The notes: generated by a model from the letters alone, not told the origin. A stretch of DNA of 64,000 bases from Candidatus Woesebacteria bacterium (GCA_003484955.1 DMZH01000003.1:47815-111814); one strand, 5' to 3'; shown: positions 9,412 to 60,387, counted from the first letter of the stretch. Numbers and translations are program-made.

Positions 9412-9412
9412 G

Positions 9413-11831: not shown

Positions 11832-12031
11832 AATGAAATATCTTGAAAAAGTTAAGCTAAATAAATTTTAATGCAGGTAGTTTAGAATGGATGATTCTTC
11901 CTAAATAATCCATTTCAATAATTTGTCTAGCTCTTCTTGGCTTTGGCAACTTGAATTTAAATTTGAAGTTCAAAAATGGAGATGCAAATTGTGAATTCCC
12001 ACGGATAATCCCATACTCTGTATTTTATCAC

Positions 12032-12580: not shown

Positions 12581-12630
12581 TTTAACACAATTGGTTTATT
12601 GTTTAACAAATCTCTCCTTAATTTTTGGTA

Positions 12631-12660
12631 ATATCTGGCAACATCTGGAAATATCTGGTA
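12631..12660. promoter_or_regulatory. Three 10-bp phased direct repeats (ATATCTGGCA / ACATCTGGAA / ATATCTGGTA) ending 10 nt upstream of the fic start codon
   Basis: Read directly; exact 10-bp periodicity. Confidence 0.5.
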
Positions 12661-12670
12661 GTATTAGGCA

Positions 12671-13657: not shown

Positions 13658-13659
13658 AA

Positions 13660-14427
13660 TTATCCTTCTCGAGAATTTAAGTCGACTTCCATATTCCATT
13701 CTTTTTCATATTCCTTGGTAAACTGATCAAATCTTTCAAACTTTTCGCGTCGGTTTAGTCCCTGGTTCAAAAGCTCATCAACCATGCCTTTTACTTGTTC
13801 TATCTTTAGATTCAATTCCGATGAAATTCTATCAATTGCGCGATCATATTCGTTAAAGATTTCAAATGTGTCAAAAGTACAAACTCTCCTAACCAAAAAT
13901 TTGTAAAAACCATCGTTTACATGGGGATTCTTGCCTCTGGCTATGGGTAAACCAATCGAATTTCTTAATTCATTTTTTCTGTCCTGAACATCTTTTCTTA
14001 ACAATCTTTCGTAATCCTGATTAAAACGTCGAGAGGAAGACTTGTGTAATTTCATCAAATATTTTTCCGGGTCGTAGAAATCTTCAGGCTCCGATTCTGA
14101 TATACTTTTGAGGCTGGTTTCTTCCCAAAAAGCGGGTTGGAAAACCTTTTCTCCCGATGATTTTTTATGTTTCTTGTGGTCTTTTGCCCTTCCGAGTTCT
14201 CCGGATGTGTAAAGCGGAATTTTTCTGCCCTTCTCAAGCATTTGATTTTTTATGAGATTGACCCGCTCGGCAAACCTGGGATCATCCGACATTACCCCAA
14301 GATAAAAATCCATTACCATCTGGTTATTCTCATCCATATCTTCCCTTTTAATTTTTCCGGACAGAAAAAGAGCTAGTGTGTGAGCAATGTCTTGATTGTT
14401 GGTGCCTCTTTGTTGTTCAGAACTCAT
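13660..14427 (-). CDS. Hypothetical protein (charged, Lys/Glu-rich)
   Basis: Long ORF, no recognisable motif. Confidence 0.4.
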   Translation of the reverse strand: MSSEQQRGTNNQDIAHTLALFLSGKIKREDMDENNQMVMDFYLGVMSDDPRFAERVNLIKNQMLEKGRKIPLYTSGELGRAKDHKKHKKSSGEKVFQPAFWEETSLKSISESEPEDFYDPEKYLMKLHKSSSRRFNQDYERLLRKDVQDRKNELRNSIGLPIARGKNPHVNDGFYKFLVRRVCTFDTFEIFNEYDRAIDRISSELNLKIEQVKGMVDELLNQGLNRREKFERFDQFTKEYEKEWNMEVDLNSREG

Positions 14428-46316: not shown

Positions 46317-46388
46317 GCCGGCGTAACTCAGTGGTAGAGTAGCTGTTTTGTAAACAGCAAGTCAGAGGTTCGAATCCTCTCGTCGGCT
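46317..46388 (+). tRNA. tRNA-Thr (anticodon TGT)
   Basis: Cloverleaf folded by hand: acceptor gccggcg/cgtcggc, anticodon loop tttgtaa, TPsiC GGTTCGAATCC. Confidence 0.8.
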
Positions 46389-46392
46389 CAGC

Positions 46393-46477
46393 GCTGAGGT
46401 GGCGGAGCGGTCAAACGCACGAGACTGTAAATCTCGCGTCCGAAAGGGCTACTCAGGTTCGAATCCTGACCTCAGCA
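46393..46477 (+). tRNA. tRNA-Tyr (anticodon GTA), long variable arm
   Basis: Acceptor gctgagg/cctcagc, anticodon loop ctgtaaa, long extra arm, TPsiC GGTTCGAATCC. Confidence 0.75.
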
Positions 46478-46489
46478 CTTGTTTTATTT

Positions 46490-46549
46490 GCCTGGGTAGC
46501 TCAGTGGTAAGAAAATCTTGCCACTTTCTCTACCCAGGTTCGGTGACTC
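46490..46549 (+). other. Duplicated 5' fragment of tRNA-Thr(GGT) (20 nt identical) that continues into a 9-bp hairpin
   Basis: gcCTGGGTAGctcagtggtaagaaaatcttgccactttctCTACCCAGGttcggtgactc; the first 20 nt equal the start of the downstream tRNA. Confidence 0.7.
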
Positions 46550-46621
46550 GCCTGGGTAGCTCAGTGGTAGAGCACGTACTTGGTAAGTACGGGGTCGTGA
46601 GTTCAATCCTCACCTCAGGCT
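46550..46621 (+). tRNA. tRNA-Thr (anticodon GGT)
   Basis: Acceptor gcctggg/ctcaggc (one G-U pair), anticodon loop ttggtaa, TPsiC GAGTTCAATCC. Confidence 0.8.
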
Positions 46622-46627
46622 CAAATT

Positions 46628-46673: not shown

Positions 46674-46865
46674 ATGGCTAAAAAAGGTGCTAGAGAAATT
46701 GTGGCTTTGATTTGTTCTGTTTGCAAAAACCAAAATTATATTACAGAAAGAAACAAAGTTAATATGGAGTTAAAAGGAAAAAAAGACTCAAAACTTGAAC
46801 TGAAGAAGTACTGTCACAATTGCAGAAAAGTTCAGATCCACAAGGAATCTTCAAAGCTAAAGTAA
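46674..46865 (+). CDS. rpmG: Ribosomal protein L33
   Basis: CSVCKNQNY...CHNCRK zinc ribbon, 63 aa. Confidence 0.85.
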   Translation: MAKKGAREIVALICSVCKNQNYITERNKVNMELKGKKDSKLELKKYCHNCRKVQIHKESSKLK

Positions 46866-46875: not shown

Positions 46876-47343
46876 TCAGATCTTGGTGGGAACAATGCGT
46901 TCAACTGTTTCGCGGATAAAGTCCATGCCCTTTTTGACTTCGCTGCTTATTTCATTTCCAAAGTAATTGTCAAGACTTGAGCTTAGAAAAGCGTATAATC
47001 TTTCGTCAGACAATCTATTTTCTTTAATCGAAAGTGAATCACATACCGTTTTTTTCAGATTTTCAAACATCACGGTAGAGCCGCTCTGATATAAAGAAAC
47101 CAATCTGTCCAGCACTATCACATTCATGTGATCTCTCACGTCTTGGCTTTGTTGTAATATTCCTTGCAGAGAGTCTGCCTTATTATCAACTAAATTTGAG
47201 GCAAATTCAGTTGCGATTCCAAAAACAGAATTTTTTTCCACATCGTTCATAGCCTCTCCCGATAATAGCTTTTTTCCTACCAACTCATAATTAACTTGTG
47301 ACCGTGATTGTAATTCTACATTTGCCATTCGTTTGGGACACAT
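46876..47343 (-). CDS. Hypothetical protein
   Basis: ORF only. Confidence 0.35.
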   Translation of the reverse strand: MCPKRMANVELQSRSQVNYELVGKKLLSGEAMNDVEKNSVFGIATEFASNLVDNKADSLQGILQQSQDVRDHMNVIVLDRLVSLYQSGSTVMFENLKKTVCDSLSIKENRLSDERLYAFLSSSLDNYFGNEISSEVKKGMDFIRETVERIVPTKI

Positions 47344-47483
47344 TGTATACCATTAAAGCTACTTAATCCAAAAATCCTCATATACCTTATAGTTAATTGA
47401 CTTTTGAAGCTATTTGGGATATCATCTCCCCATTCACCAATTGCGGTGAAAATTCGCACCTACACATTGAGGAGGAAAAGGAA

Positions 47484-47828
47484 ATGTCACGGAAAAGTTT
47501 GTCAGAAAAAGTCATTTTGGAAAATCGGGCTGGCGGAAAGGAAAGTAAAGTCGAAATATATATTGAAGCAGCCAAGGGACATCGGTCAATCAACCTTTGG
47601 GACTGGTCGGTTAAGATCACAGTCACCAGAAATGGGCATCCCTTTTCCAGCCAAGGCAACAATAAGCCAAATGAAAGTTTGGTCCACTTGATTAATCGGT
47701 TATTTGATGACATTCGCAGTGATATTTGTAATGCATACAAAAATTCGAATGTTGATTATGACCCGGTCTGTAGGTTTATTTCAGAAGCCCAGAAGAAATT
47801 TATGGCAGAACTATCTGCTGAAAAATAA
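47484..47828 (+). CDS. Hypothetical protein (start set at the Met after a strong GGAGG Shine-Dalgarno)
   Basis: gaggaggaaaaggaaATG; the listed ORF 47397-47828 has an earlier in-frame Met with no ribosome-binding site. Confidence 0.45.
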   Translation: MSRKSLSEKVILENRAGGKESKVEIYIEAAKGHRSINLWDWSVKITVTRNGHPFSSQGNNKPNESLVHLINRLFDDIRSDICNAYKNSNVDYDPVCRFISEAQKKFMAELSAEK

Positions 47829-47847
47829 ATTCTAGGCACCATTTATT

Positions 47848-47895
47848 GGGCGTTTTTATACAAGAAATTTTTGTGTAGAAACGCCCTTTATTTTT
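47848..47895 (+). terminator. Rho-independent terminator candidate
   Basis: gggcgttt...aaacgccc stem followed by a T-run. Confidence 0.5.
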
Positions 47896-47947
47896 CCTTC
47901 CTTTGCCCTCACAGGCTACATAAGGTAAAATTAGTAGTTGTTAACAA

Positions 47948-48018
47948 AGGGGCGTAGTTAAACGGCAGAACAGCGGTCTCCAAAACCGTTAATGGGGGTT
48001 CAATTCCCTCCGCCCCTG
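47948..48018 (+). tRNA. tRNA-Trp (anticodon CCA)
   Basis: Acceptor aggggcg/cgcccct, anticodon loop ctccaaa, TPsiC GGTTCAATTCC. Confidence 0.75.
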
Positions 48019-48102
48019 CTTAGTGAATTTAGCTTCAAAATATTAGATGCCTGGACGGAAGTTTGAACCTATACATAAAATTGATAATCGGGCTTGGATT
48101 TG

Positions 48103-48615
48103 ATGCAATCAGCCCGTGGTAAACAAAAATAACTATATCGTAAAAGCTCTCAGCGACTAGAGGCATCTTTTAGATGCTCTAATTGTCGCGCCATCCTTTC
48201 GGCTGATCCGCTAGGCACAAGACACAGAAACCATTGCCCGCTTTGCCTGTGGTCTAAACATGTAGACCTGAATACACCAGGAGATCGTAGGTCAAGCTGT
48301 TGTGCCAGAATGAGGCCACTAGCTCTAGCCTTTAAGAATTACGAAATCAACCCGTTTACTGGAAGGGGCGGAGGTGAACTGATGCTAATTCATCAGTGTG
48401 CTAACTGTGGCAAATTATCCCCTAACCGAATTGCTGGAGATGATAATGAGTATCAACTTCTTTCTATTTTGAGGGAATCGCTTAATCTAAACAGGGATAT
48501 TTCTAACCAACTTCAAAATTTGGGGTTAGAGCTTATCGTGTCTAAAAACAAAGAGGAGGCTTTGATTTCATTATTCGGAATCAATTACAAAAACTATTTG
48601 TCTCAAGAAGTTTAG
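48103..48615 (+). pseudogene. RNHCP-domain (zinc-ribbon) protein; the conserved N-terminal domain lies upstream of the only downstream ATG and is separated from the upstream ATG by an in-frame TAA
   Basis: In-frame translation gives FRCSNCRAILSADPLGTRHRNHCPLCLWSKHVD...SSCCARM...CANCG. The ATG at 48103 is followed by TAA at 48130; the ORF track only calls 48310-48615. Confidence 0.45.
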
Positions 48616-48730
48616 ATCAATCTGCGGAGAACGATAAACCAGTGATTGTTACTAAACTAATGACCCATTCAATAGGCATAGTAAGTTCGAATGGCTTCCA
48701 TCCAGGGCTGCAAAATTCTTTGAAGTAATG

Positions 48731-49222
48731 TTAGGCTAACAAATCTAGTGCTGCTTTACACGTATCTTCTAATGTACTCAAGATTTGTACGTCTGGACAA
48801 TCTTGAGAAAATCTTCTTTTAATATACTTCGTTCCCGAAAAACCCTCTTCTATTCCTATCACTATTTTTGCCCCATCTCTTTCGTGTTTTACTTTCCACT
48901 CGAACAATTCTCCTCTGGTCGTCTGTGCATAAGCCCTTTCGCAAACATGCGTTTCTTCCTTTGCCAACCAAAAAATGATTACACCGTTTCCTCCAGCTCT
49001 TCTGAGATGATACGTTTCCCAATCAACTTGTTCATTATATTGAACATCTTTATTAAAAGGTCTTTTTGGCGAAGCAATAGTGATTTCAGGATTTATTCCA
49101 TTAATAATTTCTTGAGCTTTAGATTGCCAATCAGGCGCTCCCTGTATTGGACCAGCCAAAAAGATTATTGATTTTCCCCCTTCTACATATTCGGGTGGAA
49201 TATATACACTTCTTTCAGACAT
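48731..49222 (-). CDS. Nucleoside 2-deoxyribosyltransferase-like (NDT/PTD-family) protein
   Basis: IIFLAGPIQGAPDWQ N-terminal motif typical of the NDT-like Rossmann family. Confidence 0.45.
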   Translation of the reverse strand: MSERSVYIPPEYVEGGKSIIFLAGPIQGAPDWQSKAQEIINGINPEITIASPKRPFNKDVQYNEQVDWETYHLRRAGGNGVIIFWLAKEETHVCERAYAQTTRGELFEWKVKHERDGAKIVIGIEEGFSGTKYIKRRFSQDCPDVQILSTLEDTCKAALDLLA

Positions 49223-49365
49223 ACACGGATTTTATATCGTAGGTGATATTTTTTGAAGTGTTGGAATATAACAAGGCTCTTGAAGCTCAAGGTAATAAGT
49301 TCTAACATCCCTTACGACTTTCTGCCACACACTTCTCCATAAATTCCATTTGATATAATGCTCAC

Positions 49366-49821
49366 ATGCCGATAACACCAGAGGAATTCAGATCTTTTCC
49401 GGAGCCAATCAAAACTTGTCTCGAACAATTTAATGTTACATTAGTGCTTGAGGGTAATTTTCCGGAGGATCTTTACAAAAAACCTATCGCTATGTACTTA
49501 CCCAATATCACTGCTGAGCTGGTTGATAATTGTGTTGAAAAAGGGGCAAAAAGAGTTGTTCTAACCACCACTTCAAATTCTATGAAAATCGAGGATGACG
49601 TTATAGAAACGTATCCCGAAAAAACACTTAGGCTTCTAAATAAAATAAAGTCTTCATGTAAACCAATATCCACCAAAGACCTGCAAAGAAAAGGTACACC
49701 GATTCCTGCACATGGAGGTATAGGCATATTCCAAACAATGAATTTTCTAAAACGCGTTGGGGGTGACTTGAACTACTATATTGTTAATCAAAAAATTGTT
49801 GCAGAAGTTACCTGGGAATAA
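49366..49821 (+). CDS. Hypothetical protein
   Basis: ORF only. Confidence 0.35.
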   Translation: MPITPEEFRSFPEPIKTCLEQFNVTLVLEGNFPEDLYKKPIAMYLPNITAELVDNCVEKGAKRVVLTTTSNSMKIEDDVIETYPEKTLRLLNKIKSSCKPISTKDLQRKGTPIPAHGGIGIFQTMNFLKRVGGDLNYYIVNQKIVAEVTWE

Positions 49822-49833
49822 ATAACTGAGGTT

Positions 49834-50472
49834 TTATATCTTAACCATTCCCAACTTTCTGGGCCAGGTTTCATTTTTGGGAGTAATCACAAACATCATC
49901 TTTTTATCAACAATATTCTTTCCTTTGATTTTGTTCGTATCCCACCATCTTTTTTCAAAATCTTTGATTCGAAATCTTCTATCCACTCCCACAAAATCGG
50001 AATAGGAATCGCAAAGTCTCAAATAGTTGGCTTTTTTGTCGACCTTGGTAATAACCGCATAATGCCCATTATCCTCATCCTCATCTTCGTAAAAAACACC
50101 CTGCCATTCTACCCCGACCGGATAGCCATATTTATTTATAGCCAAGGAGATGTCATTGATGGTAGATCGGTGTTTCCTCCAAAAAACAACCTCATTTTTA
50201 CCTAAGATGTTGGTAGCACGAGCCAGGTCGTGAATATTAAGACCCAACCGTCTGATTTTGTTTTTTGCTCTTAAAGACCTAACAATTGCAATTTGTGAGA
50301 CGTTTTTCCCCAAAAACGAAAACAACTCCAAAATTACAGCCGGGCCGCAGTGATAGCTGGAAATTTGCCTGACACGCTTCATTCCCGGAAAGGGCTTGCC
50401 GACAACCTTATCCTCAAGCTTAAGAAGCCTTTGAAGCAATTTCCTGGTTTTAATGTTTTTCTCGAGTTCCAT
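49834..50472 (-). CDS. Stand-alone C39-like (papain-fold) cysteine peptidase
   Basis: RQISSYHCGPAVILELF (Q...CGPA) and later GHYAVITKVD...CDS match the C39 Q/C/H/D arrangement. Confidence 0.5.
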   Translation of the reverse strand: MELEKNIKTRKLLQRLLKLEDKVVGKPFPGMKRVRQISSYHCGPAVILELFSFLGKNVSQIAIVRSLRAKNKIRRLGLNIHDLARATNILGKNEVVFWRKHRSTINDISLAINKYGYPVGVEWQGVFYEDEDEDNGHYAVITKVDKKANYLRLCDSYSDFVGVDRRFRIKDFEKRWWDTNKIKGKNIVDKKMMFVITPKNETWPRKLGMVKI

Positions 50473-50518
50473 AATCGGTCTATTTTACGACTCAAACCGG
50501 GTTTTGTCCAGGTGTAAG

Positions 50519-51595
50519 CTAGGAGATATTTTTGGCGTATTTTGAAAGCAGACTGGCCATGGTGTCTGAAAATTCCACTCCATGCATTGCCATTACTTCG
50601 GTCATGGGAAGCCCCATGTCTGGCCCGAAAGCCGTATTTGGGTTGCTGTCTGTAAAATACGGCATACCGGTTTCTTCATCTACTCTGACATCGAATTTTG
50701 CATAATCTTTATGTTGCAGTGCTCCGAAAGCTCTCACTGCAAGCTTGGTAATCTCATAACGCAAATCGTCTTCAACGAAAACATATTTGTATGCCCTTAA
50801 ATCATCGTATGATTCAAAGCTTGTAAAATAATGCTTCCCGTCGGGCTTGGTTCTAAATACCTTTTGTCCCATAAAAACGTGCCTTTTTCCTCCATCATCA
50901 AAAACGACAACGGTTATCTCAGGACCATCTATAAATTTTTCCACAATTACAGGAACATGGTACGTAGAAATTAAGTTGTTTGCCCTGAGCTTAGCAGCCC
51001 GATAAGTTTCCTTGACGGCGTGATTGTTTATTCCCACACTTCCCCCACCCTCATTTAGTTTTACTATTAAAGGCAAGCCCAAATCTTCATCAATGCTCGC
51101 CCCCACCCTTCTAATAAACTGAAATGGTGGCGTATGAACATCGTAGGCCATGAGAAGTCTTTTGGTCAGATTTCTGTTATTGCCGATTATCAGACCTTCC
51201 ATCCCTGCTCCCGTATAGGGAATATTTGCCAGTTCAAGAGCTGCAGGCACTGACGGCTGGAGCTTATCTCTTCCTTTTAGGGTATCAACAAGATTTACAA
51301 CCAGATCGGGTTTATCCACCAATAGGTTTGTGTAAAAATACTGATCCCCCGGTAAAGTCCGTACAGGAATCCCCAATTTTCTGATTTCTTCGGAAACCTC
51401 AATTGCCCGTTCTTCCACTTCAACCTCTGCTTCGTAAGCTGACTGTGTAGCAAAATGCTCTCTTTGAACGCTTGAGTAGGCTACTACCACAAGTCTGAAC
51501 TTTTTTAGTGTTTCTTTATCAATATTAAGTTTGATCTTCTCTTTAGAGGAGGCTTTCTTTACTTGCGCTTCGTCTTCGTTTTTGGCAGTGGGCAT
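50519..51595 (-). CDS. ATP-grasp enzyme of the D-Ala-D-Ala ligase family (divergent N-domain)
   Basis: PLIVKLNEGGGSVGI and FDVRVDEETGMPYFTDSNPNTAFGP resemble the Ddl central and C-terminal domains; the N-terminus has REHFATQS in place of GGxSxEHxVS. Confidence 0.6.
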   Translation of the reverse strand: MPTAKNEDEAQVKKASSKEKIKLNIDKETLKKFRLVVVAYSSVQREHFATQSAYEAEVEVEERAIEVSEEIRKLGIPVRTLPGDQYFYTNLLVDKPDLVVNLVDTLKGRDKLQPSVPAALELANIPYTGAGMEGLIIGNNRNLTKRLLMAYDVHTPPFQFIRRVGASIDEDLGLPLIVKLNEGGGSVGINNHAVKETYRAAKLRANNLISTYHVPVIVEKFIDGPEITVVVFDDGGKRHVFMGQKVFRTKPDGKHYFTSFESYDDLRAYKYVFVEDDLRYEITKLAVRAFGALQHKDYAKFDVRVDEETGMPYFTDSNPNTAFGPDMGLPMTEVMAMHGVEFSDTMASLLSKYAKNIS

Positions 51596-51637
51596 AAATA
51601 TATACTAGCAAATAGTAAAAAGAAAAAATAGGAGCTG

Positions 51638-52288
51638 GTGTATAATCTTGTTGTGGAAATCGGGGTATTAATCATATTTACTGGTGCCTCCGGCGCCGGA
51701 AAGGATTCTGTTATGGATGAATTTTTGAAAAATCCCATTGTCCAAAAATTTAACCTTAAAAAAGTGGTTACTTGTACAGACCGTCCTCCGCGACCCGGCG
51801 AGACGGACGGAATTCAATATCATTTTGTAAGTAGCACCCGACTTCAAAAAATGGCTGAAGATAATGAACTTGTTGAACCAATCACAAAATATGGAACATC
51901 AAATAAAGCAACTCCTAAGGTTGAAATTGAGAGACTTCTGGCCGGTGAAAATTTAGTTTGGAGAATTGATCCTTCCCGCGCGGCTGAAGTTGCTTCGGGG
52001 AAATTTTTCCAAAGAATTTTCCCTGAGAAGGCACATTTGCTTCAAAGTCATACAATTGTGTTTTTTGTAACTGCACCAAAAGAAGTCATTGCCGAAAGAA
52101 GAAAAAGAAGAGATCTTGATAAATATGACCCGGAAGAATATAAGGTCCGTGATGATCAAGACCAAATTTATTTAAACATACTTCAAGAAAAAGCCATTCT
52201 TATAGAAAATATTAACAGCAGACTTAATGAGGCAGTAGACACAGCCGTAAAATCCGCCGTGGGCATATATGACAAAATCAAAAACTAA
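51638..52288 (+). CDS. Guanylate kinase-like P-loop kinase (Gmk/PhnN family)
   Basis: TGASGAGKDS P-loop and TDRPPRPGETDGIQYHFVS. Confidence 0.6.
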   Translation: MYNLVVEIGVLIIFTGASGAGKDSVMDEFLKNPIVQKFNLKKVVTCTDRPPRPGETDGIQYHFVSSTRLQKMAEDNELVEPITKYGTSNKATPKVEIERLLAGENLVWRIDPSRAAEVASGKFFQRIFPEKAHLLQSHTIVFFVTAPKEVIAERRKRRDLDKYDPEEYKVRDDQDQIYLNILQEKAILIENINSRLNEAVDTAVKSAVGIYDKIKN

Positions 52289-52700
52289 AGTAATTCTAAC
52301 CGGCGGGTGCTTTGACATTCTCCACTACGGACATGTTTACTTTTTGAAAAAGGCAAAATCTTTGGGAGATTACTTGGTTGTTGCCATAGAATCGGATGAA
52401 AGAATAAGAGAGTTAAAGGGTAAAGGGCGGCCTTTTCATTCACAAAAACAAAGAAAAGAAACACTTGAGTCTTTGAAATTTGTCGATAAGGTAATTATTT
52501 TAAAAGATAAAATGACTCATCAAGATTACATTGACCTGGTTAATAAGGTTAACCCTTGTATAATCGCGGTAACCGAAGGTGACCCTATTCTTGACAAGAA
52601 AAAGGAGCAAGCAGAAATGGTTGGAGCCAAAATTGTCCAAATACCCCACATCAGAACCCACTCAACTACCCAAATATCCAAATTTTTAAATTTAGATTAA
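52269..52700 (+). CDS. Cytidylyltransferase-like nucleotidyltransferase (TagD / HldE domain II / RibL-like)
   Basis: HxGH motif GGCFDILHYGH, 143 aa; overlaps the upstream kinase by 20 nt. Confidence 0.65.
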   Translation: MTKSKTKVILTGGCFDILHYGHVYFLKKAKSLGDYLVVAIESDERIRELKGKGRPFHSQKQRKETLESLKFVDKVIILKDKMTHQDYIDLVNKVNPCIIAVTEGDPILDKKKEQAEMVGAKIVQIPHIRTHSTTQISKFLNLD

Positions 52701-53939
52701 TTATTCCCAAGTTTTGATTTCCGTCTGGGGTAATTTCAATTTTCTTGGCGTAACAAAAAGTAATATTATCGAGAACGTCAACACGATGACCCCTAACCAA
52801 CTAAATGTTAATCTTTCCCCAACCTTAGACGAGATTAGTCCGGCAAAAACTGGCCAAATTATATAGGAAAGGTTCATCACCGACCCGGTCAGTCCTATCA
52901 TGTCTTTCTTCTCACTTCCCATTCTGGTAAGAATATCCGTGTAAACCCCCTGCAGAAGCGGATAACAAACTGCCAACGCACTTGATGCTAAGCAAATTAT
53001 TGCAAGCTGCCAGGAAACGCTCGAGGAAAAAGCGATGGCTATAAAAAATATTCCGGACAAACCCAAAAATTTTTCAGCTAACTTTTTCTTACCGTTCGAA
53101 ATATTCCACCTGGAAAGTGGAATTCCTAAACAAATAGAAGGAAGAAGGTATAAAGGCAAAAACCATATACCCCAAGGATTAACCAAAGTTAATTTCTCCG
53201 TCCAAACCGCGCCAACTGTATAAAATGTTGCATCGATAAAACCCAACACTAGACCGATAGCCAGAGCCGGCCAAACTGTTCTGGAAAGGGTCAGCCAGTG
53301 CCTAAGTTCCGCCCACGGATTTGCATGAGAAAAATCAACAGCAGTTGGAACATCATGTCTATTTTTGTTCAGTGTTAAAAGCACTAAAGCGACAACAAGA
53401 AAAATTATTATCGTCCCCTGGGTAATCAAGATTCCGTTGGATAAAAGCTCTGCGGCAATAAACGGTCCCAGGAAATATGCCAGATTGACAAAAATTCCGG
53501 TAAATCCCCAGGCAGCGGCTCTCATTTGACTGGGAACAACCGTTCCCATAAATTGAAAGTTGGCAAAATTTACAAGTTCATAATAAATTCCCCAGAGAGT
53601 CATTGTGGCAATAAAAATAGCCAGTAAAGGTTTAAACGTAGACGCGCTTAAGAAAAACGACGTTAAGGCAGAAACCAATATTGCCCAAAAAATCAGGCGT
53701 CTTGTACGAACAGTCTTAAAAATTCTGGGGAAAATCAAATCGGCAGAAAACCCCACAATTGATTGAAAACTGATAATAGCACCCATAATAACCGGGTTTT
53801 GCAATGAATTTTGAATTTGATTCGGAGCCCAAAAAGCAATAATAGAGTCAGACAAACGTAGAAAAAATAAAATCAAAGAGAAAGTAAGAAGCCTATTCCA
53901 AACAAGATTCTCTTTAAACATCAAAATATACCTTTTCAC
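52701..53939 (-). CDS. MFS transporter
   Basis: About 12 predicted TMs. Confidence 0.6.
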   Translation of the reverse strand: MKRYILMFKENLVWNRLLTFSLILFFLRLSDSIIAFWAPNQIQNSLQNPVIMGAIISFQSIVGFSADLIFPRIFKTVRTRRLIFWAILVSALTSFFLSASTFKPLLAIFIATMTLWGIYYELVNFANFQFMGTVVPSQMRAAAWGFTGIFVNLAYFLGPFIAAELLSNGILITQGTIIIFLVVALVLLTLNKNRHDVPTAVDFSHANPWAELRHWLTLSRTVWPALAIGLVLGFIDATFYTVGAVWTEKLTLVNPWGIWFLPLYLLPSICLGIPLSRWNISNGKKKLAEKFLGLSGIFFIAIAFSSSVSWQLAIICLASSALAVCYPLLQGVYTDILTRMGSEKKDMIGLTGSVMNLSYIIWPVFAGLISSKVGERLTFSWLGVIVLTFSIILLFVTPRKLKLPQTEIKTWE

Positions 53940-53965
53940 AAACTAATAATGAGGCAAGTGAGAAG

Positions 53966-54973
53966 TTATTTCAACCTTGCAATTTGCGCATCAACCATCA
54001 GGTGAACTAAATCCTTGAATGTAGTTTTTGGAGTCCAACCTAAAACTTTCTTTGCTTTTGAAGGATTGGCAACGAGTGGTCCTGTTTCTGTAGGGCGGAT
54101 AAATCTGTCATCAACTACCACATGATCTTTCCAGTTAAGCCCCACATAGCCATATGATTCCTCACAAAGTTCCTGAATTGTGTGGGTTTCCCCGGTTCCG
54201 ATTACGAAATCGTCCGGTTTGTCCTGCTGTAGTATAAGCCACATGGCTTCAACATAATCCCCGGCAAATCCCCAATCGCGCTTTGCCTGAAGATTTCCAA
54301 GAGCTACTTTTCCGTTTTTGACAATTGGCTCGCCTTCTTCGTTGAGATGTTCGGAACTTTTAACTCCAAGTTTCGCACAGGCTGCAGCATATGTAACTTT
54401 TTGAGTTACAAAACCAAGATGTCTTCGGGGCGACTCGTGATTAAACAAAATTCCGTTTGAAGCAAACATATTATAGCTTTCCCTGTATATTTTGGTCATG
54501 GCATGAGCATAAAGCTTTGAAGCCGCATAGGGATTGGCCGGATTAAATGGAGTTTCTTCGTTTTGAGGAATTTCTCTTACCCACCCGAACATTTCGCTGC
54601 TGCTGGCTTGATAGAATCTTGATTTTGGAACAACATCCAGAGTCGCATCCAGAACTCTGTGAGCTCCAATTGCGGTAATCTCTGCCGTATGAATCGGCTG
54701 CCTAAAGCTTTCCGCGGGGTGACTTTGAGACGCTAGATTATAAACTTCATCGGGTTTAGATTTTTGCAACGCCTCACGAATCGAAATCGGGTCCAGTAGA
54801 TCCGCCTGAATCAAATTTAACTCTTCTTGAATGTGGGAAATGTTGGCATAAGCCATATTACTGGTTTTTCTCACAATCCCTGTAACAATATAATCTTTCT
54901 TAAGAAGAAGTTCCGCAAGGTAACTTCCGTCCTGGCCGGTAATTCCTGTAATTAATGCTACTTTTTTAGACAT
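53966..54973 (-). CDS. gmd: GDP-mannose 4,6-dehydratase
   Basis: ALITGITGQDGSYLAELLL N-terminus, SDR extended family. Confidence 0.85.
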   Translation of the reverse strand: MSKKVALITGITGQDGSYLAELLLKKDYIVTGIVRKTSNMAYANISHIQEELNLIQADLLDPISIREALQKSKPDEVYNLASQSHPAESFRQPIHTAEITAIGAHRVLDATLDVVPKSRFYQASSSEMFGWVREIPQNEETPFNPANPYAASKLYAHAMTKIYRESYNMFASNGILFNHESPRRHLGFVTQKVTYAAACAKLGVKSSEHLNEEGEPIVKNGKVALGNLQAKRDWGFAGDYVEAMWLILQQDKPDDFVIGTGETHTIQELCEESYGYVGLNWKDHVVVDDRFIRPTETGPLVANPSKAKKVLGWTPKTTFKDLVHLMVDAQIARLK

Positions 54974-55074
54974 TACAAGAAATCATAACATATGTTAAAA
55001 TTACAAGCTAGTATCACCAGGAAGGAGGCGATTTAAATTTATGTTTACCGCATAAGCGGAGATATATTCAAAAT

Positions 55075-55269
55075 ATGTTTATTATTAAAAAGAAAAAAGG
55101 AGAAAGCGACGACAAGCTTATTGCCCGCTTTCGTAAAAAAACGATAGTCGAAGGTGTCATGCAGGAGTATCGCGACCGCGAACACTACAAAAAACCGGCT
55201 GAAAGAAGAAAAGAGGCCAAGTATCGCATCGCCCACTCTATCGAGCTTGAGAAAAAGAGGAGTTATTAA
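55075..55269 (+). CDS. rpsU: Ribosomal protein S21
   Basis: Basic 64-aa protein with S21-like REHYKKPAERRKEAK. Confidence 0.7.
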   Translation: MFIIKKKKGESDDKLIARFRKKTIVEGVMQEYRDREHYKKPAERRKEAKYRIAHSIELEKKRSY

Positions 55270-55894
55270 AATAGCTTTCCACAAATTTCTTTCTGTGCAA
55301 TCTGGTCAGTCCGTATTTTTGGATAACATTTCTGTGAATAAGCGTGCCGTAGCCTTTATTTTTATCCCACCCGTATTTTTTGTATTTACGGTTATTAGAT
55401 AATTTGGCCATAAGCTTATCACGGTAAACTTTGGCTATGATTGAGGCCGCAGCAATTGAAATTGATTTAGTATCCCCTTTTATAATCGGTTTTTGATTCT
55501 TTCGGCGCAACCCTCTTACATAAGGAACGTAAAAAGCATCAATTAAAATATAATTTATCTCGATCCCACAGTTTTTTATCGCTTTCCTAAAAGCTATCTC
55601 ACTGGCTTTTTTGATTCCAAATTTATTAATTTGAGCAACACTCGACTTTCCAATTCCAAAAACCAGTGCGTTTTTTCTGATCCATTTATCAGCAATTTCT
55701 CTTTGTCTAGGAGTTAATTTCTTCGAGTCATTAATCTTAGGTGGGTTTTCCCATTTATCATTAAGACCAAAAACAACAGCCCCTGCCACAACCGGTCCCG
55801 CAAAACAACCTCTTCCAACCTCATCCATGCCGGCAATAATTCTGTATCCTTTTTTAGAGACTGTCTTTTCGAAAGAAAAATCCGGAAGATTCAT
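55238..55894 (-). CDS. rnhB: Ribonuclease HII
   Basis: GMDEVGRGCFAGPVVAGAVV catalytic motif. Confidence 0.9.
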   Translation of the reverse strand: MNLPDFSFEKTVSKKGYRIIAGMDEVGRGCFAGPVVAGAVVFGLNDKWENPPKINDSKKLTPRQREIADKWIRKNALVFGIGKSSVAQINKFGIKKASEIAFRKAIKNCGIEINYILIDAFYVPYVRGLRRKNQKPIIKGDTKSISIAAASIIAKVYRDKLMAKLSNNRKYKKYGWDKNKGYGTLIHRNVIQKYGLTRLHRKKFVESYFNNSSFSQAR

Positions 55895-56286
55895 TTTTTA
55901 ATCCGTTCCCTATACTTTCTGGGATACCTGTCATACAAAAAAGTGGCAAACCTGTCTACTAATTCATTCCGTTCTCCTGTAGACATTTCACCAAGACTGA
56001 TTTTGACCCTTATTGCCGAATTGCTGTTTACTACCCTTCCGGCCAATGTTACGTGCCCTACCCCGGCCAGAAAATACTGAAAACAGGCTTTCTTTAAGCT
56101 CATCGTCGCCTTCTCTTCAATTTCCTCCCAATAATCCATATCTGCAACACCAAATACACTTTCCGGGTACTCACCCTTTAATCCAACCAAAACAGATTCC
56201 CACGAACCCTCGGCAATTTTAAACTTAGGCTTTTTTTCATCCTCAAATCGGATGGGTCTTTTCTCACTTTCAGCTCCCATGGCCAA
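55891..56286 (-). CDS. Hypothetical protein
   Basis: ORF only, 4-nt overlap with rnhB. Confidence 0.4.
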   Translation of the reverse strand: MAMGAESEKRPIRFEDEKKPKFKIAEGSWESVLVGLKGEYPESVFGVADMDYWEEIEEKATMSLKKACFQYFLAGVGHVTLAGRVVNSNSAIRVKISLGEMSTGERNELVDRFATFLYDRYPRKYRERIKK

Positions 56287-56349
56287 TTATACACCGAGAG
56301 GCAATCTATCTTGTGCGCTTCAGAATAATTTGATACAATTCACATCTAG

Positions 56350-56535
56350 ATGAAATCGGTCGTTACTTTCTTTTCAGAAGTAAGAAGTGAACTTTCCAAG
56401 GTTACCTGGCCAAAGAAAAATGAAGTCGTCAGACTTACGAGTATCGTTCTTTTGGTTTCGGTGATTGTTGGATTTTACGTAGGAGGACTCGATTATTTGT
56501 TCACAACAGTTTTGACAAGAATATTAACTAAATAA
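56350..56535 (+). CDS. secE: Preprotein translocase subunit SecE
   Basis: 61 aa, single TM, VTWPKKNEVV motif; followed by nusG. Confidence 0.8.
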   Translation: MKSVVTFFSEVRSELSKVTWPKKNEVVRLTSIVLLVSVIVGFYVGGLDYLFTTVLTRILTK

Positions 56536-56544: not shown

Positions 56545-57174
56545 ATGAACGAAGACACAAAACAGCAAGAAACAGTTGCAGGAGTAGCAGAAAGAGGTAT
56601 CGGACATAAAAAGATCCAGGGCCACATGATCCTTGCCCAGACAACCGATCCTAAAGCAAAGTGGTATGTAGTTCATACCTCTTCGGGCCATGAGGTACGT
56701 GTCATGGACACCCTCCGCCAGAGAGTTGAAACCATGAACCTGGAAGGTAGGGTTTTTGAAATGTTGGTTCCGACACAAGACAGAGTTATTATCAGAAGTG
56801 GTAAAAAAGCAACCATCAAGGAAAAGATTTTTCCGGGATACCTTCTTGTAAAGATGATTTTGGACGATCCGACTTGGCTTGCCGTCAGGACAACTGCCGG
56901 AATTACGGGGTTTGTAGGAGCGGGAAATAAACCCACCCCTCTTTCCGATGCTGAAGTTGCAAACATCCAGAAATTTATCAGCTCTCCCGCTCCCAGATTT
57001 AAGACCAAATTTAGTGTTGGTGAGGCTATTAAAATCGTCGACGGGCCTTTTTCGGATTTTCTTGGAACAATCCATGAAATTGATGAGGAAAAAGGTAAAG
57101 TCAAAGTTTTGGTTTCAATTTTCGGCCGCGAAACACCGGTCGAGCTTGATTTTCTACAAATTCAGAAAGTTTAA
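56545..57174 (+). CDS. nusG: Transcription antiterminator NusG
   Basis: NGN domain (WYVVHTSSGHE), KOW (GEAIKIVDGPF). Confidence 0.9.
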   Translation: MNEDTKQQETVAGVAERGIGHKKIQGHMILAQTTDPKAKWYVVHTSSGHEVRVMDTLRQRVETMNLEGRVFEMLVPTQDRVIIRSGKKATIKEKIFPGYLLVKMILDDPTWLAVRTTAGITGFVGAGNKPTPLSDAEVANIQKFISSPAPRFKTKFSVGEAIKIVDGPFSDFLGTIHEIDEEKGKVKVLVSIFGRETPVELDFLQIQKV

Positions 57175-57470
57175 TGTCTGAAAATTTAAATAAAAAAGAG
57201 GGGTTCGATTCTCCAGACTATCCCACAGTTCTTGACGTTGTTATTTGGAAAGACACCCATTATCAAGTAGTTGGCATTGCGCAGACAAAATCTTACAAAA
57301 ATGACCTGTTCACTGTTCAGGGGCTGGAGGATAAAGATACACCTTTCCGAATTAAAGGTGCTAGATTCCATCGTACAATAAGCCAAGACCCACCGGAAGG
57401 AAGGGTTTATAAAAGAGAAGAAGGCGTGAGAGTTACAGGAGAACTTCTTGGCGGAAAACGACACATTTAA
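57174..57470 (+). CDS. Small hypothetical protein inserted between nusG and rplK
   Basis: ATG overlaps the nusG stop (TAATG); no homology recognised. Confidence 0.4.
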   Translation: MSENLNKKEGFDSPDYPTVLDVVIWKDTHYQVVGIAQTKSYKNDLFTVQGLEDKDTPFRIKGARFHRTISQDPPEGRVYKREEGVRVTGELLGGKRHI

Positions 57471-57822: not shown

Positions 57823-58245
57823 ATGGCAAAAAAGATCAAAACAGTAGTTAAAATCAATCTTAAGGCGGCTGAGGCTACCCCTGCTCCTCCCGTAGGAACA
57901 GCTCTTGGGCAGCACGGAGTTGCCATCATGGATTTTGTCAAACAGTACAACGACAAAACAAAAGACATGAAGGGACAAGTTGTCCCCGCGGTCATCACTA
58001 TTTACGAAGACAGATCATTCGATTTTACAATCAAGAAAGCCCCTGTTTCCGACATGATTAAAAAGGCTTTGGGAATTGAAAAAGGAAGCGGTAAAACCCC
58101 GAGAGAGCCAGCAGGAACCATAACTCACGAGCAGGTCAAAAAGATTGCTGAGGAAAAATTGGTTGATTTAAACACAACTGATGTTGAAGCAGCAGCCAGA
58201 ATTGTTGAAGGAACAGCAAGAAGTATGGGAGTAAAAGTAGAGTAA
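57823..58245 (+). CDS. rplK: Ribosomal protein L11
   Basis: KINLKAAEATPAPPVGTALGQHGV, PPVGPALG-like motif. Confidence 0.9.
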   Translation: MAKKIKTVVKINLKAAEATPAPPVGTALGQHGVAIMDFVKQYNDKTKDMKGQVVPAVITIYEDRSFDFTIKKAPVSDMIKKALGIEKGSGKTPREPAGTITHEQVKKIAEEKLVDLNTTDVEAAARIVEGTARSMGVKVE

Positions 58246-58259
58246 AAGACACAAAAATT

Positions 58260-59042
58260 ATGGGAAAAATGAAAACAGCGTTTGTCGGAGAAGACTCCAA
58301 TAAAAAGAAAGAAAAAGAACAAGAAAAGGTTCACTTGGCCGGACTTAAAGGTGGTCAAAAAGTTAAAGTGGTTGAGGCAGCACCCGGCGAAGAGTCCCCG
58401 ATTATTGAAGAAGGAGCTCAGAACACCGAAGTCACCAAAAAATCAAAAAAGATCGAACACATAAGGGGTAAAAAATATAAAGAATCTAAAGCTAAATTTG
58501 ATCATGAAAAATTGTACAAAGTTTCTGAAGCAGTCAAACTTGTAAAAGAAACCTCTTATTCAAAATTTGACGGAACAATGGAACTACACCTTGTTGTCAA
58601 AAAGACGGGAACGTCCATCCAGATTACTCTTCCCCATCAGGCGGGTCGGGTTAAGAAAGTCGAAATCGCCAGTGAAGATACCATTACCAAACTTAAAGAA
58701 GGAAAAATTGATTTTGATATCTTAGTGGCAACACCCGATATGATGCCAAAACTTGTCCCGTTCGCGAAACTTTTAGGACCTAAAGGCCTTATGCCAAATC
58801 CCAAAAATGGAACTTTAATAAACGATCCCAAAAAGGTTAAGTCGTTTTCAACCGCAACGGTTACGTTAAAAACAGAAAGAGAAGCCCCTCTTGTACACAC
58901 TGTAGTCGGCAAAACAATTCAGGCGGATTCAGAGTTGGTTGAAAATCTTGAAGCCATTCTCAAGGCTTTTGGAGGTATAAAACAAATAGAAAAAGCATAT
59001 ATCAAAGCCACAATGGGCCCATCAGTGAAAGTTAAGGTATAA
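58260..59042 (+). CDS. rplA: Ribosomal protein L1 with about 50-aa Lys/Glu-rich N-terminal extension
   Basis: The L1 core starts about KESKAKFDHEKLYKVSEAVKLVKE. Confidence 0.85.
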   Translation: MGKMKTAFVGEDSNKKKEKEQEKVHLAGLKGGQKVKVVEAAPGEESPIIEEGAQNTEVTKKSKKIEHIRGKKYKESKAKFDHEKLYKVSEAVKLVKETSYSKFDGTMELHLVVKKTGTSIQITLPHQAGRVKKVEIASEDTITKLKEGKIDFDILVATPDMMPKLVPFAKLLGPKGLMPNPKNGTLINDPKKVKSFSTATVTLKTEREAPLVHTVVGKTIQADSELVENLEAILKAFGGIKQIEKAYIKATMGPSVKVKV

Positions 59043-59046
59043 CTTT

Positions 59047-59289
59047 TTGGATTTGATGAATTTTGGTTTTTTGATAAACTATAACCAAATGACAGAAGAA
59101 TCGACGGAAAGAGCCTTTAATCAATTGCCCCAAAAACCGATTTTAACCACCAAGGTGCTGGAAACTCCCGACTCAATTCAGAGAGAGTTTGATGTGGCTA
59201 AACTAAACCCAACTAGACTACAGGAAAAATTGGATGCCCAAAGAAGAATTGAAAAATTAAAAAAGAGTCAAATCGATAATCCCAGTTGA
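59047..59289 (+). CDS. Questionable small ORF in the rplA-rplJ spacer (more likely the L10 leader RNA region)
   Basis: ORF only. Confidence 0.15.
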   Translation: MDLMNFGFLINYNQMTEESTERAFNQLPQKPILTTKVLETPDSIQREFDVAKLNPTRLQEKLDAQRRIEKLKKSQIDNPS

Positions 59290-59377
59290 CTTTGCGCTTC
59301 AAAAATTAGATAATACCTCTGTCCTAAGAAAGTATGCTCCAGGCAAAACTTGGCATAAGTCATACCGAGGCAAAAGC

Positions 59378-59408
59378 GATTTTCGCGCCTCGTGCGCGAT
59401 TTTTTTTG
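59378..59408 (+). promoter_or_regulatory. GC hairpin plus T-run (attenuator-like) just upstream of and overlapping the rplJ start region
   Basis: gcgattttcgcgcctcgtgcgcgatttttttt. Confidence 0.35.
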
Positions 59409-59961
59409 GACAAAATATAAAAATATGAAAAAATTGGAAAAGATAGTATTTGTAGACAATTTAAAAGTTGAGCTAAAAGACGCCAAGTCGGTAATCCTTG
59501 TCAATTATGCAGGACTTGCCGTTAAACCCCAACAAGAACTTAAAAGAAGACTGGCCGAAGTTGGTGGAAAAATGGTTGTTGTTAAAAACACGCTCCTCTC
59601 CCGTGCCGGCGATGCGGCAGGATTTGACAGTAAAAATCTAACCGGCGAAATTCTTTCCGGTCAAACCGCTCTTATTATTGCAACCGACGATCCTGTTGCC
59701 CCAATTCAAGTTTTAGGAAAATTTGCCAAAGAATTTGTCAGTGCAGCCGGCGAATCAGTTCCGAAATTTAAAATCGGTATTGTTGAAGGATTATTCCAGG
59801 ATTCTCAATCTCTCTCTCAAATCTCGCTTCTTCCAGGACGCGATGCACTTCTTGGACAATTCCTTGGAACGTTAATGGGTACCCAATACGGGTTAGTTGG
59901 AACATTGAATGCAAATTTGCAGAAACTGGTTTATGTGTTAGACACAGCCAGTAAAAAGTAA
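59392..59961 (+). CDS. rplJ: Ribosomal protein L10
   Basis: L10 family similarity; position before rplL. Confidence 0.85.
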   Translation: MRDFFWTKYKNMKKLEKIVFVDNLKVELKDAKSVILVNYAGLAVKPQQELKRRLAEVGGKMVVVKNTLLSRAGDAAGFDSKNLTGEILSGQTALIIATDDPVAPIQVLGKFAKEFVSAAGESVPKFKIGIVEGLFQDSQSLSQISLLPGRDALLGQFLGTLMGTQYGLVGTLNANLQKLVYVLDTASKK

Positions 59962-59982
59962 GGATCGGAGGTGAATTATTAA

Positions 59983-60387
59983 ATGGCAGAAGAATCTAAA
60001 AAAGTATCAGAAAAAGTTGAAAAGATTGTGGAGGAAGTTTCTAAACTTTCTGTTTTGGAACTTTCCGAACTAGTCACAGCTTTGCAAGACAAGCTTGGTG
60101 TTTCCGCCGCGCTTCCGGTTGCAGCAGCAGCCCCAGCAGCCGCAGGAGAAGCTCCAGCAGAAGATGCCGGCAGTGCTAATAAAACAGTAGTCATGACCGA
60201 TTCCGGTGCAAATAAAATTGCAGTTATTAAGGCTTTGAGGGAAATAAATCCCAACCTAACCTTAATGGATGCCAAAGGAATGACAGACACTGTTCCAGCT
60301 GAAGTTTTGAAAGATGCTAAAGCAGAAGATGCTAAGTCAGCTTCCGACAAACTTACCGCAGCAGGAGCAAAAGTGGAACTTAAATAA
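59983..60387 (+). CDS. rplL: Ribosomal protein L7/L12
   Basis: Ala-rich hinge AAAAPAAAGEAPAE, C-terminal domain KIAVIKALREI. Confidence 0.9.
   Translation: MAEESKKVSEKVEKIVEEVSKLSVLELSELVTALQDKLGVSAALPVAAAAPAAAGEAPAEDAGSANKTVVMTDSGANKIAVIKALREINPNLTLMDAKGMTDTVPAEVLKDAKAEDAKSASDKLTAAGAKVELK

Follow-up and report, generated by a model that had tools for sequence, protein, structure and literature searches.

An old gene order, a tRNA-Trp-linked island site and a candidate recoding site between rpmG and secE in a Candidatus Woesebacteria chromosome

We have analyzed the stretch between rpmG and secE in a 64,000-nt window of DNA from a Candidatus Woesebacteria bacterium (GCA_003484955.1 DMZH01000003.1:47815-111814). 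This stretch is very probably layered native chromosome, comprising an old gene arrangement, a turnover zone at tRNA-Trp and a candidate recoding site in an RNHCP gene, and not one insert. In many bacteria, including Thermotoga and the actinobacteria, a canonical (tRNA-Thr/Tyr)-rpmG-tRNA-Trp-secE-nusG-rplKAJL cluster is found, and in mycobacteria hadABC lies between rpmG2 and tRNA-Trp. In the window, rpmG and tRNA-Trp are separated by 1082 nt and tRNA-Trp and secE by 8330 nt, as had been noticed in an earlier reading made from the sequence alone (the sequence-only reading), which ascribed the block from 46.9 to 56.3 kb either to a rearrangement specific to the lineage or to insertion beside the tRNA array. 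Rearrangement describes ~6.5 of these 9.5 kb, insertion applies only to the 1.8 kb proximal to tRNA-Trp, and insertion of the whole block does not hold. The gene-order anomaly is an ordinary one: the rpmG-tRNA-Trp-secE-nusG neighborhood was broken early in Woesebacteria and has been porous to insertions since, which matters wherever synteny of ribosomal-protein genes is used with Candidate Phyla Radiation (CPR, Patescibacteria) genomes. The candidate RNHCP recoding site is the most interesting item of the region.

The ~6.5 kb from 49.8 to 56.3 kb are an ancient lineage-specific arrangement, because gene order is kept across the lineage and GC content and codon usage are native. A NusG scan taking one genome per species yielded 80 loci (L001-L080), onto all of which the window proteins and tRNAs were mapped. 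Those loci that name a lineage are mostly titled Candidatus Woesebacteria, Microgenomates or Patescibacteria, and a few dozen carry the submitter label 'uncultured Gammaproteobacteria', which is contradicted by their gene content. tRNA-Trp and secE are adjacent in none of the 30 loci that hold both, and the gap between them ranges from 1442 to 9414 nt with a median of ~6.1 kb. Sixty-one loci extend at least 4 kb upstream of secE, and those 4 kb contain rpsU in 59 of them and rnhB in 43; 51 loci extend at least 9 kb, of which 31 have gmd and 10-17 each of the ATP-grasp, nucleotidyltransferase, MFS and C39-like genes. The genes from C39-like to nucleotidyltransferase stand in the same order in nearer relatives, some of which also have the MFS transporter; it occupies the equivalent position in L003, L005, L010, L012 and others and is absent from L001. 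Even the deepest lineage reached (two loci, 64% NusG identity) has kept rpsU-rnhB-(hypothetical)-secE-nusG ... rplK-rplA-(insert)-rplJ-rplL, with no tRNA within 10 kb. A presence/absence comparison of the whole 46.9-56.3 kb block as a recent tRNA-linked island therefore gave a negative outcome, the core order being kept across the species loci. The cluster is split elsewhere too, with nusG-rplK gaps of 4-8206 nt and rplA-rplJ gaps of 9-6073 nt among these loci. It is hypothesized that the class ancestor separated tRNA-Trp from secE and put rpsU-rnhB directly upstream of secE-nusG, and that its descendants would have retained the rpsU-rnhB-secE-nusG anchor as intergenic positions, including nusG/rplK and rplA/rplJ, freely gained and lost genes.

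The composition of the block does not deviate from its surroundings. GC is flat over the block at 0.36-0.43, like the rest of the window, and the codon-usage z-scores of all block genes, from a leave-one-out likelihood against the window's genes, lie between -1.1 and +1.0. Conserved order and homogeneous composition, which the sequence-only reading had itself named as telling against an insertion, are thus what is found for the ~6.5 kb. The direct repeats of the tRNA 3' end that it had proposed to look for at the block boundaries are absent, and no repeat of the tRNA-Trp 3' end was found in the window by a repeat search or by 24-mer and 16-mer searches allowing up to 3 mismatches. No recombinase or phage family was matched by the block proteins scanned against Pfam and PHROG, apart from a guanylate-kinase match.

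Genes were taken from an open reading frame (ORF) listing with Pfam assignments, and tRNAs from ARAGORN and Rfam; all positions are those of the whole window. The features are as follows.

46317-46389: tRNA-Thr(TGT) (ARAGORN and Rfam)
46393-46478: tRNA-Tyr (ARAGORN and Rfam)
46490-46539, plus strand: tRNA-Thr(GGT) 5' fragment module, in which an exact 20-nt copy (46490-46509) is followed by a 20-nt loop and then by an inverted complement
46550-46622: tRNA-Thr(GGT) (ARAGORN and Rfam)
46674-46865, plus strand: rpmG, ribosomal protein L33 (Pfam Ribosomal_L33, E = 1.3e-13)
46876-47343, minus strand: hypothetical gene, 155 aa, without Pfam, NCBIfam or PHROG match
47484-47828, plus strand: hypothetical gene, 114 aa, with AGGAGG ribosome-binding site; length agrees with gene callers
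47948-48019, plus strand: tRNA-Trp(CCA), last 5 nt CCTGC at 48015-48019
48116-48615, plus strand: RNHCP gene, full candidate frameshifted reading (RNHCP 94.8 bits)
48310-48615, plus strand: RNHCP ORF, ATG-started part (Pfam RNHCP 28 bits)
48731-49222, minus strand: nucleoside 2-deoxyribosyltransferase-like (NDT-like) gene (Pfam Nuc_deoxyri_tr2 PF15891, 33 bits)
49256-49324, no strand: conserved ~70-nt non-coding motif, counterparts in L001 and L006
49366-49821, plus strand: hypothetical gene, 151 aa (hyp151), no family match, strain-specific
49834-50472, minus strand: weak C39-like peptidase gene (Pfam C39, sub-threshold, 20.8 bits against a cut-off of 22)
50519-51595, minus strand: Ddl-like ATP-grasp gene (Pfam)
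51638-52288, plus strand: guanylate-kinase-like (Gmk-like) kinase gene (Pfam Guanylate_kin)
52269-52700, plus strand: RfaE-II/TagD-like cytidylyl/adenylyltransferase-like nucleotidyltransferase gene (Pfam CTP_transf_like)
52701-53939, minus strand: MFS transporter gene (Pfam MFS_1)
53966-54973, minus strand: gmd (Pfam GDP_Man_Dehyd, 378 bits)
55075-55269, plus strand: rpsU (Pfam S21)
55238-55894, minus strand: rnhB (Pfam RNase HII)
55891-56286, minus strand: hypothetical gene, 131 aa (ORF listing)
56350-56535, plus strand: secE
56545-57174, plus strand: nusG
57174-57470, plus strand: hypothetical gene, 98 aa, after nusG
57823-60387, plus strand: rplK, rplA, rplJ and rplL

The genes listed in the sequence-only reading are all present, including the two hypothetical genes between rpmG and tRNA-Trp, and Pfam backs most of them; the C39-like gene is there, with a Pfam score below threshold. 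NCBIfam scores of the ATP-grasp, the kinase and the nucleotidyltransferase fall well under the equivalog cut-offs, and their names denote predicted fold families, not established functions. The 155-aa hypothetical protein has tblastn matches only in L001 (91%), L002 (59%) and L010 (36%), which confines it to close relatives. Nine block ORFs and the small ORF that follows nusG were compared with PHROG and matched nothing but guanylate kinase, and an Rfam scan of 44-61 kb gave nothing above threshold beyond the four tRNAs. Counts in a promoter/terminator scan were no higher than the shuffled expectation, the sole notable item being a terminator-like hairpin at 47848-47886, 3' of the 114-aa hypothetical gene. 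The convergent genes rpsU and rnhB overlap at their 3' ends by 32 nt (55238-55269). Ribosomal protein L1 (58260-59042) has 260 aa, with a Lys/Glu-rich N-terminal extension of ~30 residues relative to the 231-aa L1 of the deeper loci L176 and L177; in L176 the rplA/rplJ junction is split by a 1441-aa PA14-domain protein.

The junction at the end of tRNA-Trp is polymorphic within the population of the window. Conspecific contigs were found by exact-sequence look-up of two window proteins, and these were of two kinds, window-like and island-bearing. Several independent assemblies match the window over 20,345 nt at 100% identity, among them one with a 750-kb contig (ENA sediment metagenome PRJNA167727), and this 20.3 kb agreement rules out an assembly artefact. 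The island-bearing contigs are 100% identical to the window through 48019, the last tRNA-Trp base, then diverge, and are identical again from CCTGC followed by TTAGTGAATTT; the aligned stretch that runs from this core CCTGC into the RNHCP cassette is identical in them. The island measures 12,952 bp after joining of the two halves of one contig, is placed wholly between window positions 48019 and 48020, and has a GC of 0.352 vs 0.394 in its flanks. Its location is as follows.

L173 1344 to L162, on contig ena:ERZ27254733:k141_275195 at about 1354-14305: island, also seen in L164, L166, L168 and L170

The island gene at the tRNA end (L173/L170/L168), which is not in the window, encodes a 504-aa protein that is a predicted large serine recombinase, because it carries Resolvase, Recombinase and Zn_ribbon_recom Pfam domains. 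The rest of the island comprises several small ORFs, proteins with HTH_36, SHOCT and HTH_3 domains, a 1363-aa HTH/AAA_16 protein, an ASCH protein, hydrolases and a UDG protein. The empty and occupied alleles are precise, and their attachment (att) sites read as follows.

attB (window): ...CTCCGCC-CCTGC-TTAGTGAATTTAGC...
attL: ...CTCCGCC-CCTGC-CAATTCTCAC...
attR: ...GGCCACTAAGG-CCTGC-TTAGTG...

CCTGC alone (48015-48019) is common to the three, and a core as short as this is expected for a serine recombinase. The last 5 nt of tRNA-Trp are thus the predicted crossover core of an attB for the large-serine-recombinase island, and the window is the unoccupied (empty) allele of that site. The sequence-only reading was therefore correct in pointing to insertion beside a tRNA as far as the site goes, since attB is filled by a 13-kb island in conspecifics; it was not correct for the window itself. 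The reconstructed attP junction had no match in viral_contigs. A distant Woesebacterium with a complete genome (CP011214; locus L048 3445-7660) has a 530-aa recombinase of the same architecture that overlaps tRNA-Trp on the opposite strand and is only 23% identical to that of the island, and an attR-like site, ...GTTTATTAGCCCCTGC/AAAATAA, ending in GCCCCTGC, lies 4.1 kb downstream. These alleles give a population-level view of an occupied and an empty site for a serine-recombinase island with a tRNA 3'-end attB in an uncultivated ultrasmall bacterium, with attB and attP defined to the base. The island could help in the study of horizontal gene transfer in Patescibacteria, and it could also supply new recombinase/att pairs.

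The first gene downstream of tRNA-Trp in the window is RNHCP, and what the sequence-only reading had described as an RNHCP gene with a stop is probably part of a candidate conserved programmed -1 ribosomal frameshift. The stop is there (TAA 48130-48132, upstream of the domain), but the real anomaly is that the domain frame offers no ATG, GTG or TTG before ATG 48310, halfway through the domain, although the domain (profile positions 2-90) lies wholly in that one frame from ~48160. In the +1 register relative to the domain frame is a short ORF, GTG48116-MVNKNNYIVKALSD-TAG, whose GTG start at 48116 stands 6 nt after a -10-like TGCAAT and whose frame-A codons read MVNKNNYIVK. The slippery tetramer A_AAA_G at 48142-48146, within GTA_AAA_G at 48140-48146, would allow tRNA-Lys to re-pair one base back, and reading after the slip continues as ...K-SSQRLEASFRCSNC... 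across the whole domain to a -1 frame stop at 48613-48615. Thus two overlapping ORFs in the 0 and -1 frames are present, and the domain can be reached only via a shift. A stem-loop at 48153-48189 (-17.4 kcal/mol, z = -3.7) follows the slip site after a 6-nt spacer.

This layout is conserved in the RNHCP (PF12647) genes of a large Patescibacteria clade. A metagenome scan for RNHCP homologues gave 80 loci (L081-L160), of which 73 could be analyzed and 62 were distinct after removal of site-region duplicates. Sixty-one of the 62 have the same layout, at 45-95% aa identity. The start is ATG in 54 and GTG in 7 loci, 43 have it 4-9 nt after a TAnnnT box, and the leader frame has 9-11 codons in 56. 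The slip tetramer, A_AAA_R or U_UUY_N, stands at a fixed distance from the first Cys codon in 61/62 loci (U_UUU_G in 25, U_UUU_C in 17, A_AAA_G in 13, A_AAA_A in 4 and others in 2). A hairpin lies 5-7 nt past the slip site in 46 of the 61, with a median minimum free energy of -16 kcal/mol. In a gapless alignment of 63 sequences, 83.7% of cells are paired in the hairpin vs 26-44% with slid partners, and none of 500 shuffles reaches the observed value. Four hairpin pairs covary; in one example CG occurs 31, GC 16 and GU 11 times, with a synonymous Leu third position tracking a Gln/Glu change. When L038 is compared with the window, GTG and ATG interchange at the start and GTA and GTG (both Val) at the next codon, so that frame A is preserved upstream of the slip site; over 48133-48310, an alignment read by eye gives 11 synonymous differences in frame B and a single non-synonymous one. 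An in-frame start in the domain frame occurs in only 8/73 loci (duplicates included) and is always TTG. Public proteins of close homologues are mostly 92-105-aa truncations from an internal Met, and distant members (42-48% identity) together with the near member P0207 have ordinary in-frame N-termini, as predicted for a trans-frame product.

In the proposed mechanism, translation would start at a start codon 6-9 nt past a -10 box and read 9-11 codons, whereupon the ribosome, stimulated by the stem-loop 5-7 nt further on, would slip -1 on A_AAA_G (U_UUU_G/C in other clades) and carry on through the whole RNHCP zinc-binding domain. Literature searches returned no biological paper on RNHCP or PF12647, and the frameshifting phrase was absent from the top-ranked Patescibacteria/CPR papers; we found no report of the RNHCP frameshift, which makes it a candidate for a previously unreported case. 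If confirmed, it would be a new cellular case of recoding, and it would correct many database entries that are systematically truncated by public gene calls.

That RNHCP is instead a decaying pseudogene, with the missing start and the upstream stop as lesions, is very unlikely. Gene callers do give only a truncated ORF of 77-101 aa, and the gene is located in a turnover zone; against this, 61/62 distinct loci at 45-95% aa identity share the architecture with five or six slip-site variants at a fixed position, the N-terminal half that lacks a start shows nearly all-synonymous substitutions, and the full domain scores 94.8 bits. The gene might also be recoded by another route, namely by transcriptional slippage on the A/T run, which would add one extra nucleotide, or by non-canonical initiation in the RNHCP frame. 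This is less improbable than decay, and it would fit a slip site that is always a homopolymer run and the in-frame TTG near the domain start of the 8/73 loci, but we still regard it as rather unlikely. The runs are just 4-5 nt long in all but one locus, shorter than the runs on which RNA polymerase is known to slip efficiently in dnaX and insertion sequence (IS) elements. In addition, a conserved, covarying stem-loop 5-7 nt downstream is a hallmark of ribosomal -1 frameshifting, and no near-cognate in-frame start is found in the window or in most homologues. The ribosome rather than RNA polymerase would therefore be the more probable agent of the shift.

RNHCP opens the 48.02-49.83 kb segment directly 3' of tRNA-Trp, which is a turnover zone. 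L001, the closest species representative, is 92-98% identical at the nt level in rpmG, gmd, rpsU, secE, nusG and rplKAJL; in place of window 48020-49855 (RNHCP, NDT-like gene and hyp151) it has three other ORFs, one of which is a second Ddl-like ATP-grasp. Neither the NDT-like gene nor hyp151 had a tblastn match in the 80 species loci, and the NDT-like gene is present in conspecific assemblies. The tRNA-Trp to secE interval of relatives is similarly diverse, as clustering of its 136 unassigned ORFs from 29 species gave 109 clusters, of which 96 are singletons. Among 106 interval ORFs scanned, the commonest Pfam families are miscellaneous small enzymes, e.g. NUDIX, UDG and phosphoribosyltransferase, and there is no recombinase among the 25 commonest. 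The ~70-nt motif at 49256-49324 (...GGAATATAACAAGGCTCTTGAAG...GTAATAAGTTCTAACATC...) recurs at L001 2618-2686 and L006 6846-6924 in gene contexts that all differ, and may be a promoter or another boundary element.

Further into the conserved cluster, the genes from C39-like to nucleotidyltransferase (49834-52700) are a mosaic of 78-90% nt identity to L001, most flanking genes being at 92-98%. The ATP-grasp (50519-51595) and the nucleotidyltransferase (52269-52700) are 78% identical to L001 with neighbors mostly at 90-98%, and the window ATP-grasp protein is nearer to L003 and L005 (93-94% aa) than to L001 (86%). The mosaic divergence of these two genes therefore suggests inter-lineage recombination within the conserved cluster. 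Separately, a second Ddl-like ATP-grasp (B) lies beyond the C39-like gene in four loci (L001 3453-4487, L007 2359-3345, L016 1998-3014 and L024 3931), in the order ATP-grasp B, C39-like, ATP-grasp A; the window has no ATP-grasp B there.

The RNHCP gene of the window is carried on a small unit with the following limits.

48020-48717, plus strand: RNHCP cassette, with half-site Y at 48020-48072 and half-site X at 48674-48717

Window 48013-48711 is 92% identical at the nt level to L038 346-1010 and to L081, vs 68-76% for other shared genes, and because of this excess the cassette appears to have been exchanged horizontally between lineages. In L038/L081 the cassette lies 4.5 kb from tRNA-Trp, is flanked by motif Y on the left and motif X on the right, and starts with CCCCTGCT, which equals the last 7 nt of the window tRNA-Trp plus the next base. 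Five imperfect-palindrome X/Y sites of ~95 nt, two of them partial, lie between small genes downstream of tRNA-Trp in L081 (1283-6602). A 34-nt repeat that bears a likeness to the left arm of the island attR occurs six times in L062 (3697-6883), and three of its copies terminate in GCCCCTGC, the exact last 8 nt of the L062 tRNA-Trp. Both arrays have a cassette-like layout of small genes separated by repeats, with no recombinase present, and we read them as probable scars of serial integrations. A hidden Markov model of the X/Y repeat matches only the window, L081, L038, L094 and L006, and hence there is no widespread repeat family; the last 8 nt of each species' tRNA-Trp likewise show no general enrichment downstream of the tRNA. 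Scans of viral_contigs with RNHCP and the NDT-like gene gave no matches. We hypothesize that remnants which have decayed or lack an integrase, the 0.7-kb RNHCP cassette being one example, would accumulate at tRNA-Trp and be swapped between lineages.

A bolder proposal, which we consider unlikely, is an integron-like system driven by a serine recombinase and anchored at the tRNA-Trp 3' end, in which small integrase-less cassettes bounded by X/Y half-sites, including the 0.7-kb RNHCP unit with its candidate obligatory frameshift, would be added one by one at the tRNA and pass from lineage to lineage. Judged by eye and with no dedicated attC search, the X/Y repeat ends (GTTCGAA..., ...TTTGAAC) do not fit attC GTTRRRY/RYYYAAC. 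The 25 commonest Pfam families of the interval ORFs include no IntI-type family, no dedicated IntI search having been made, and the recombinases seen at the tRNA-Trp site are of the serine type only.

Two other explanations concern how the block and its variable end arose. That the whole 9.5-kb block is a recent genomic island beside the tRNA array is extremely improbable. The block does lie between tRNA genes and a conserved operon with a tRNA fragment nearby, and the tRNA-Trp 3' end is truly an attB; however, the gmd-rpsU-rnhB-secE-nusG order is common to species with 64-100% NusG identity, nearer relatives also share the C39-like, ATP-grasp and nucleotidyltransferase genes and in some cases the MFS gene, GC and codon usage are native, and neither bounding repeats nor an integrase are found. 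Moreover, the real island of sister strains has a GC of 0.352 and sits wholly between 48019 and 48020. A possible though doubtful account of the variable 1.8 kb by tRNA-Trp, and the least improbable of the alternatives, is ordinary insertion/deletion turnover with homologous recombination and without site-specific integration. The nusG/rplK and rplA/rplJ junctions vary in a similar way and gave no att sites, recognizable att scars are lacking at the NDT-like gene and hyp151, and the mosaic divergence of the ATP-grasp and nucleotidyltransferase genes points to homologous recombination. Set against this, a serine-recombinase island occupies exactly this junction in conspecifics and another lies at tRNA-Trp in L048, the RNHCP cassette has at its two ends repeat halves that are found again between small genes of L081, and the L038/L081 cassette carries CCCCTGCT, equal to the last 7 nt of the window tRNA-Trp and one further base. 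On balance, the variable zone may well have been built by a recombinase.

Several points weigh against the reading of the region as an old arrangement with a turnover zone and a recoding site. L075 is arranged otherwise, as rpmG-rplKAJL ... rpsU-rnhB-secE-nusG-tRNA-Trp. The loci are all Woesebacteria-like, two NusG protein searches aimed at outgroups having returned only Woesebacteria-like proteins, so that only a lower bound can be set on the age of the rearrangement. The functions of the block genes are based on sub-threshold family matches. Only in L062 and L081/L038 is the tRNA-Trp 3' end copied farther downstream, and since the NDT-like gene and hyp151 have no att scars and the window has no tRNA-Trp 3' repeat, we only infer an origin of these two genes by integration. 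For the recoding site, runs of 4-5 A or T are compatible with transcriptional slippage, which keeps the frameshift a candidate, and in a minority of homologues gene callers take an in-frame TTG as the start.

The tRNA array upstream of rpmG has its own rearrangements. The duplicated tRNA-Thr 5' fragment noticed in the sequence-only reading is real: the 20 nt at 46490-46509 exactly repeat 46550-46569, the 5' end of tRNA-Thr(GGT), and 46530-46539 is the inverted complement, CTACCCAGGT, of the acceptor end of the same tRNA. Together with the 20-nt loop these form a 10-bp hairpin (46490-46539) just upstream of the intact tRNA-Thr(GGT). A like module, with a 20-nt 5' copy, a loop containing CTTGGCCACT and an inverted GTTACGCCGG, lies upstream of tRNA-Thr(TGT) in L170 (8764-8833) and L001 (312-384) and not in the window. 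Because it is present in L170 and absent from the window, the tRNA-Thr(TGT) module is polymorphic in the window's population. L009 has a 29-nt tRNA-Trp 5' copy (7055-7083) upstream of its own tRNA-Trp. These modules are probably products of local rearrangement. The tRNA-Thr(TGT)-tRNA-Tyr pair is inverted relative to rpmG in L002, L006, L010, L021, L031 and L050, and tRNA-Thr(GGT) is also inverted in L010 and L021, a pattern that indicates probable repeated small inversions in the array.

Compared with the canonical cluster, the window has the same order and orientation of tRNA-Thr, tRNA-Tyr, tRNA-Thr, rpmG, tRNA-Trp, secE, nusG, rplK, rplA, rplJ and rplL; it differs in the 8.3 kb between tRNA-Trp and secE (1.4-9.4 kb in relatives) and in the fixed position of rpsU-rnhB upstream of secE, and further inserts split nusG/rplK and rplA/rplJ in the lineage. 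The island resembles known tRNA-linked islands in its insertion at a tRNA 3' end, the regeneration of the tRNA, a short bounding direct repeat, a recombinase beside the tRNA and a lower GC. Unlike these, it has a large serine recombinase instead of the usual tyrosine integrase and a core of only 5 nt, and the window is the empty site. Integron arrays share with the L081 (five sites, two partial) and L062 (six) arrays small single-gene units, repeated imperfect-palindrome sites and a fixed anchor, whereas here the anchor is the tRNA 3' end, the recombinase, where present, is of the serine type, and only a few lineages are involved. Known -1 frameshift sites include that of dnaX (A_AAA_AAG with a stem-loop) and those of IS3-family transposases (A_AAA_G). 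The RNHCP site shares with these the overlapping 0 and -1 frames, a run of the A_AAA_G type, a stable stem-loop 5-7 nt downstream and conservation in homologues. It differs in that the candidate shift, after 9-11 codons, would be obligatory for the sole functional product, the mRNA is seemingly leaderless or near-leaderless, the family (PF12647) is an uncharacterized zinc-binding one, and Lys AAA and Phe UUU are interchangeable between clades.

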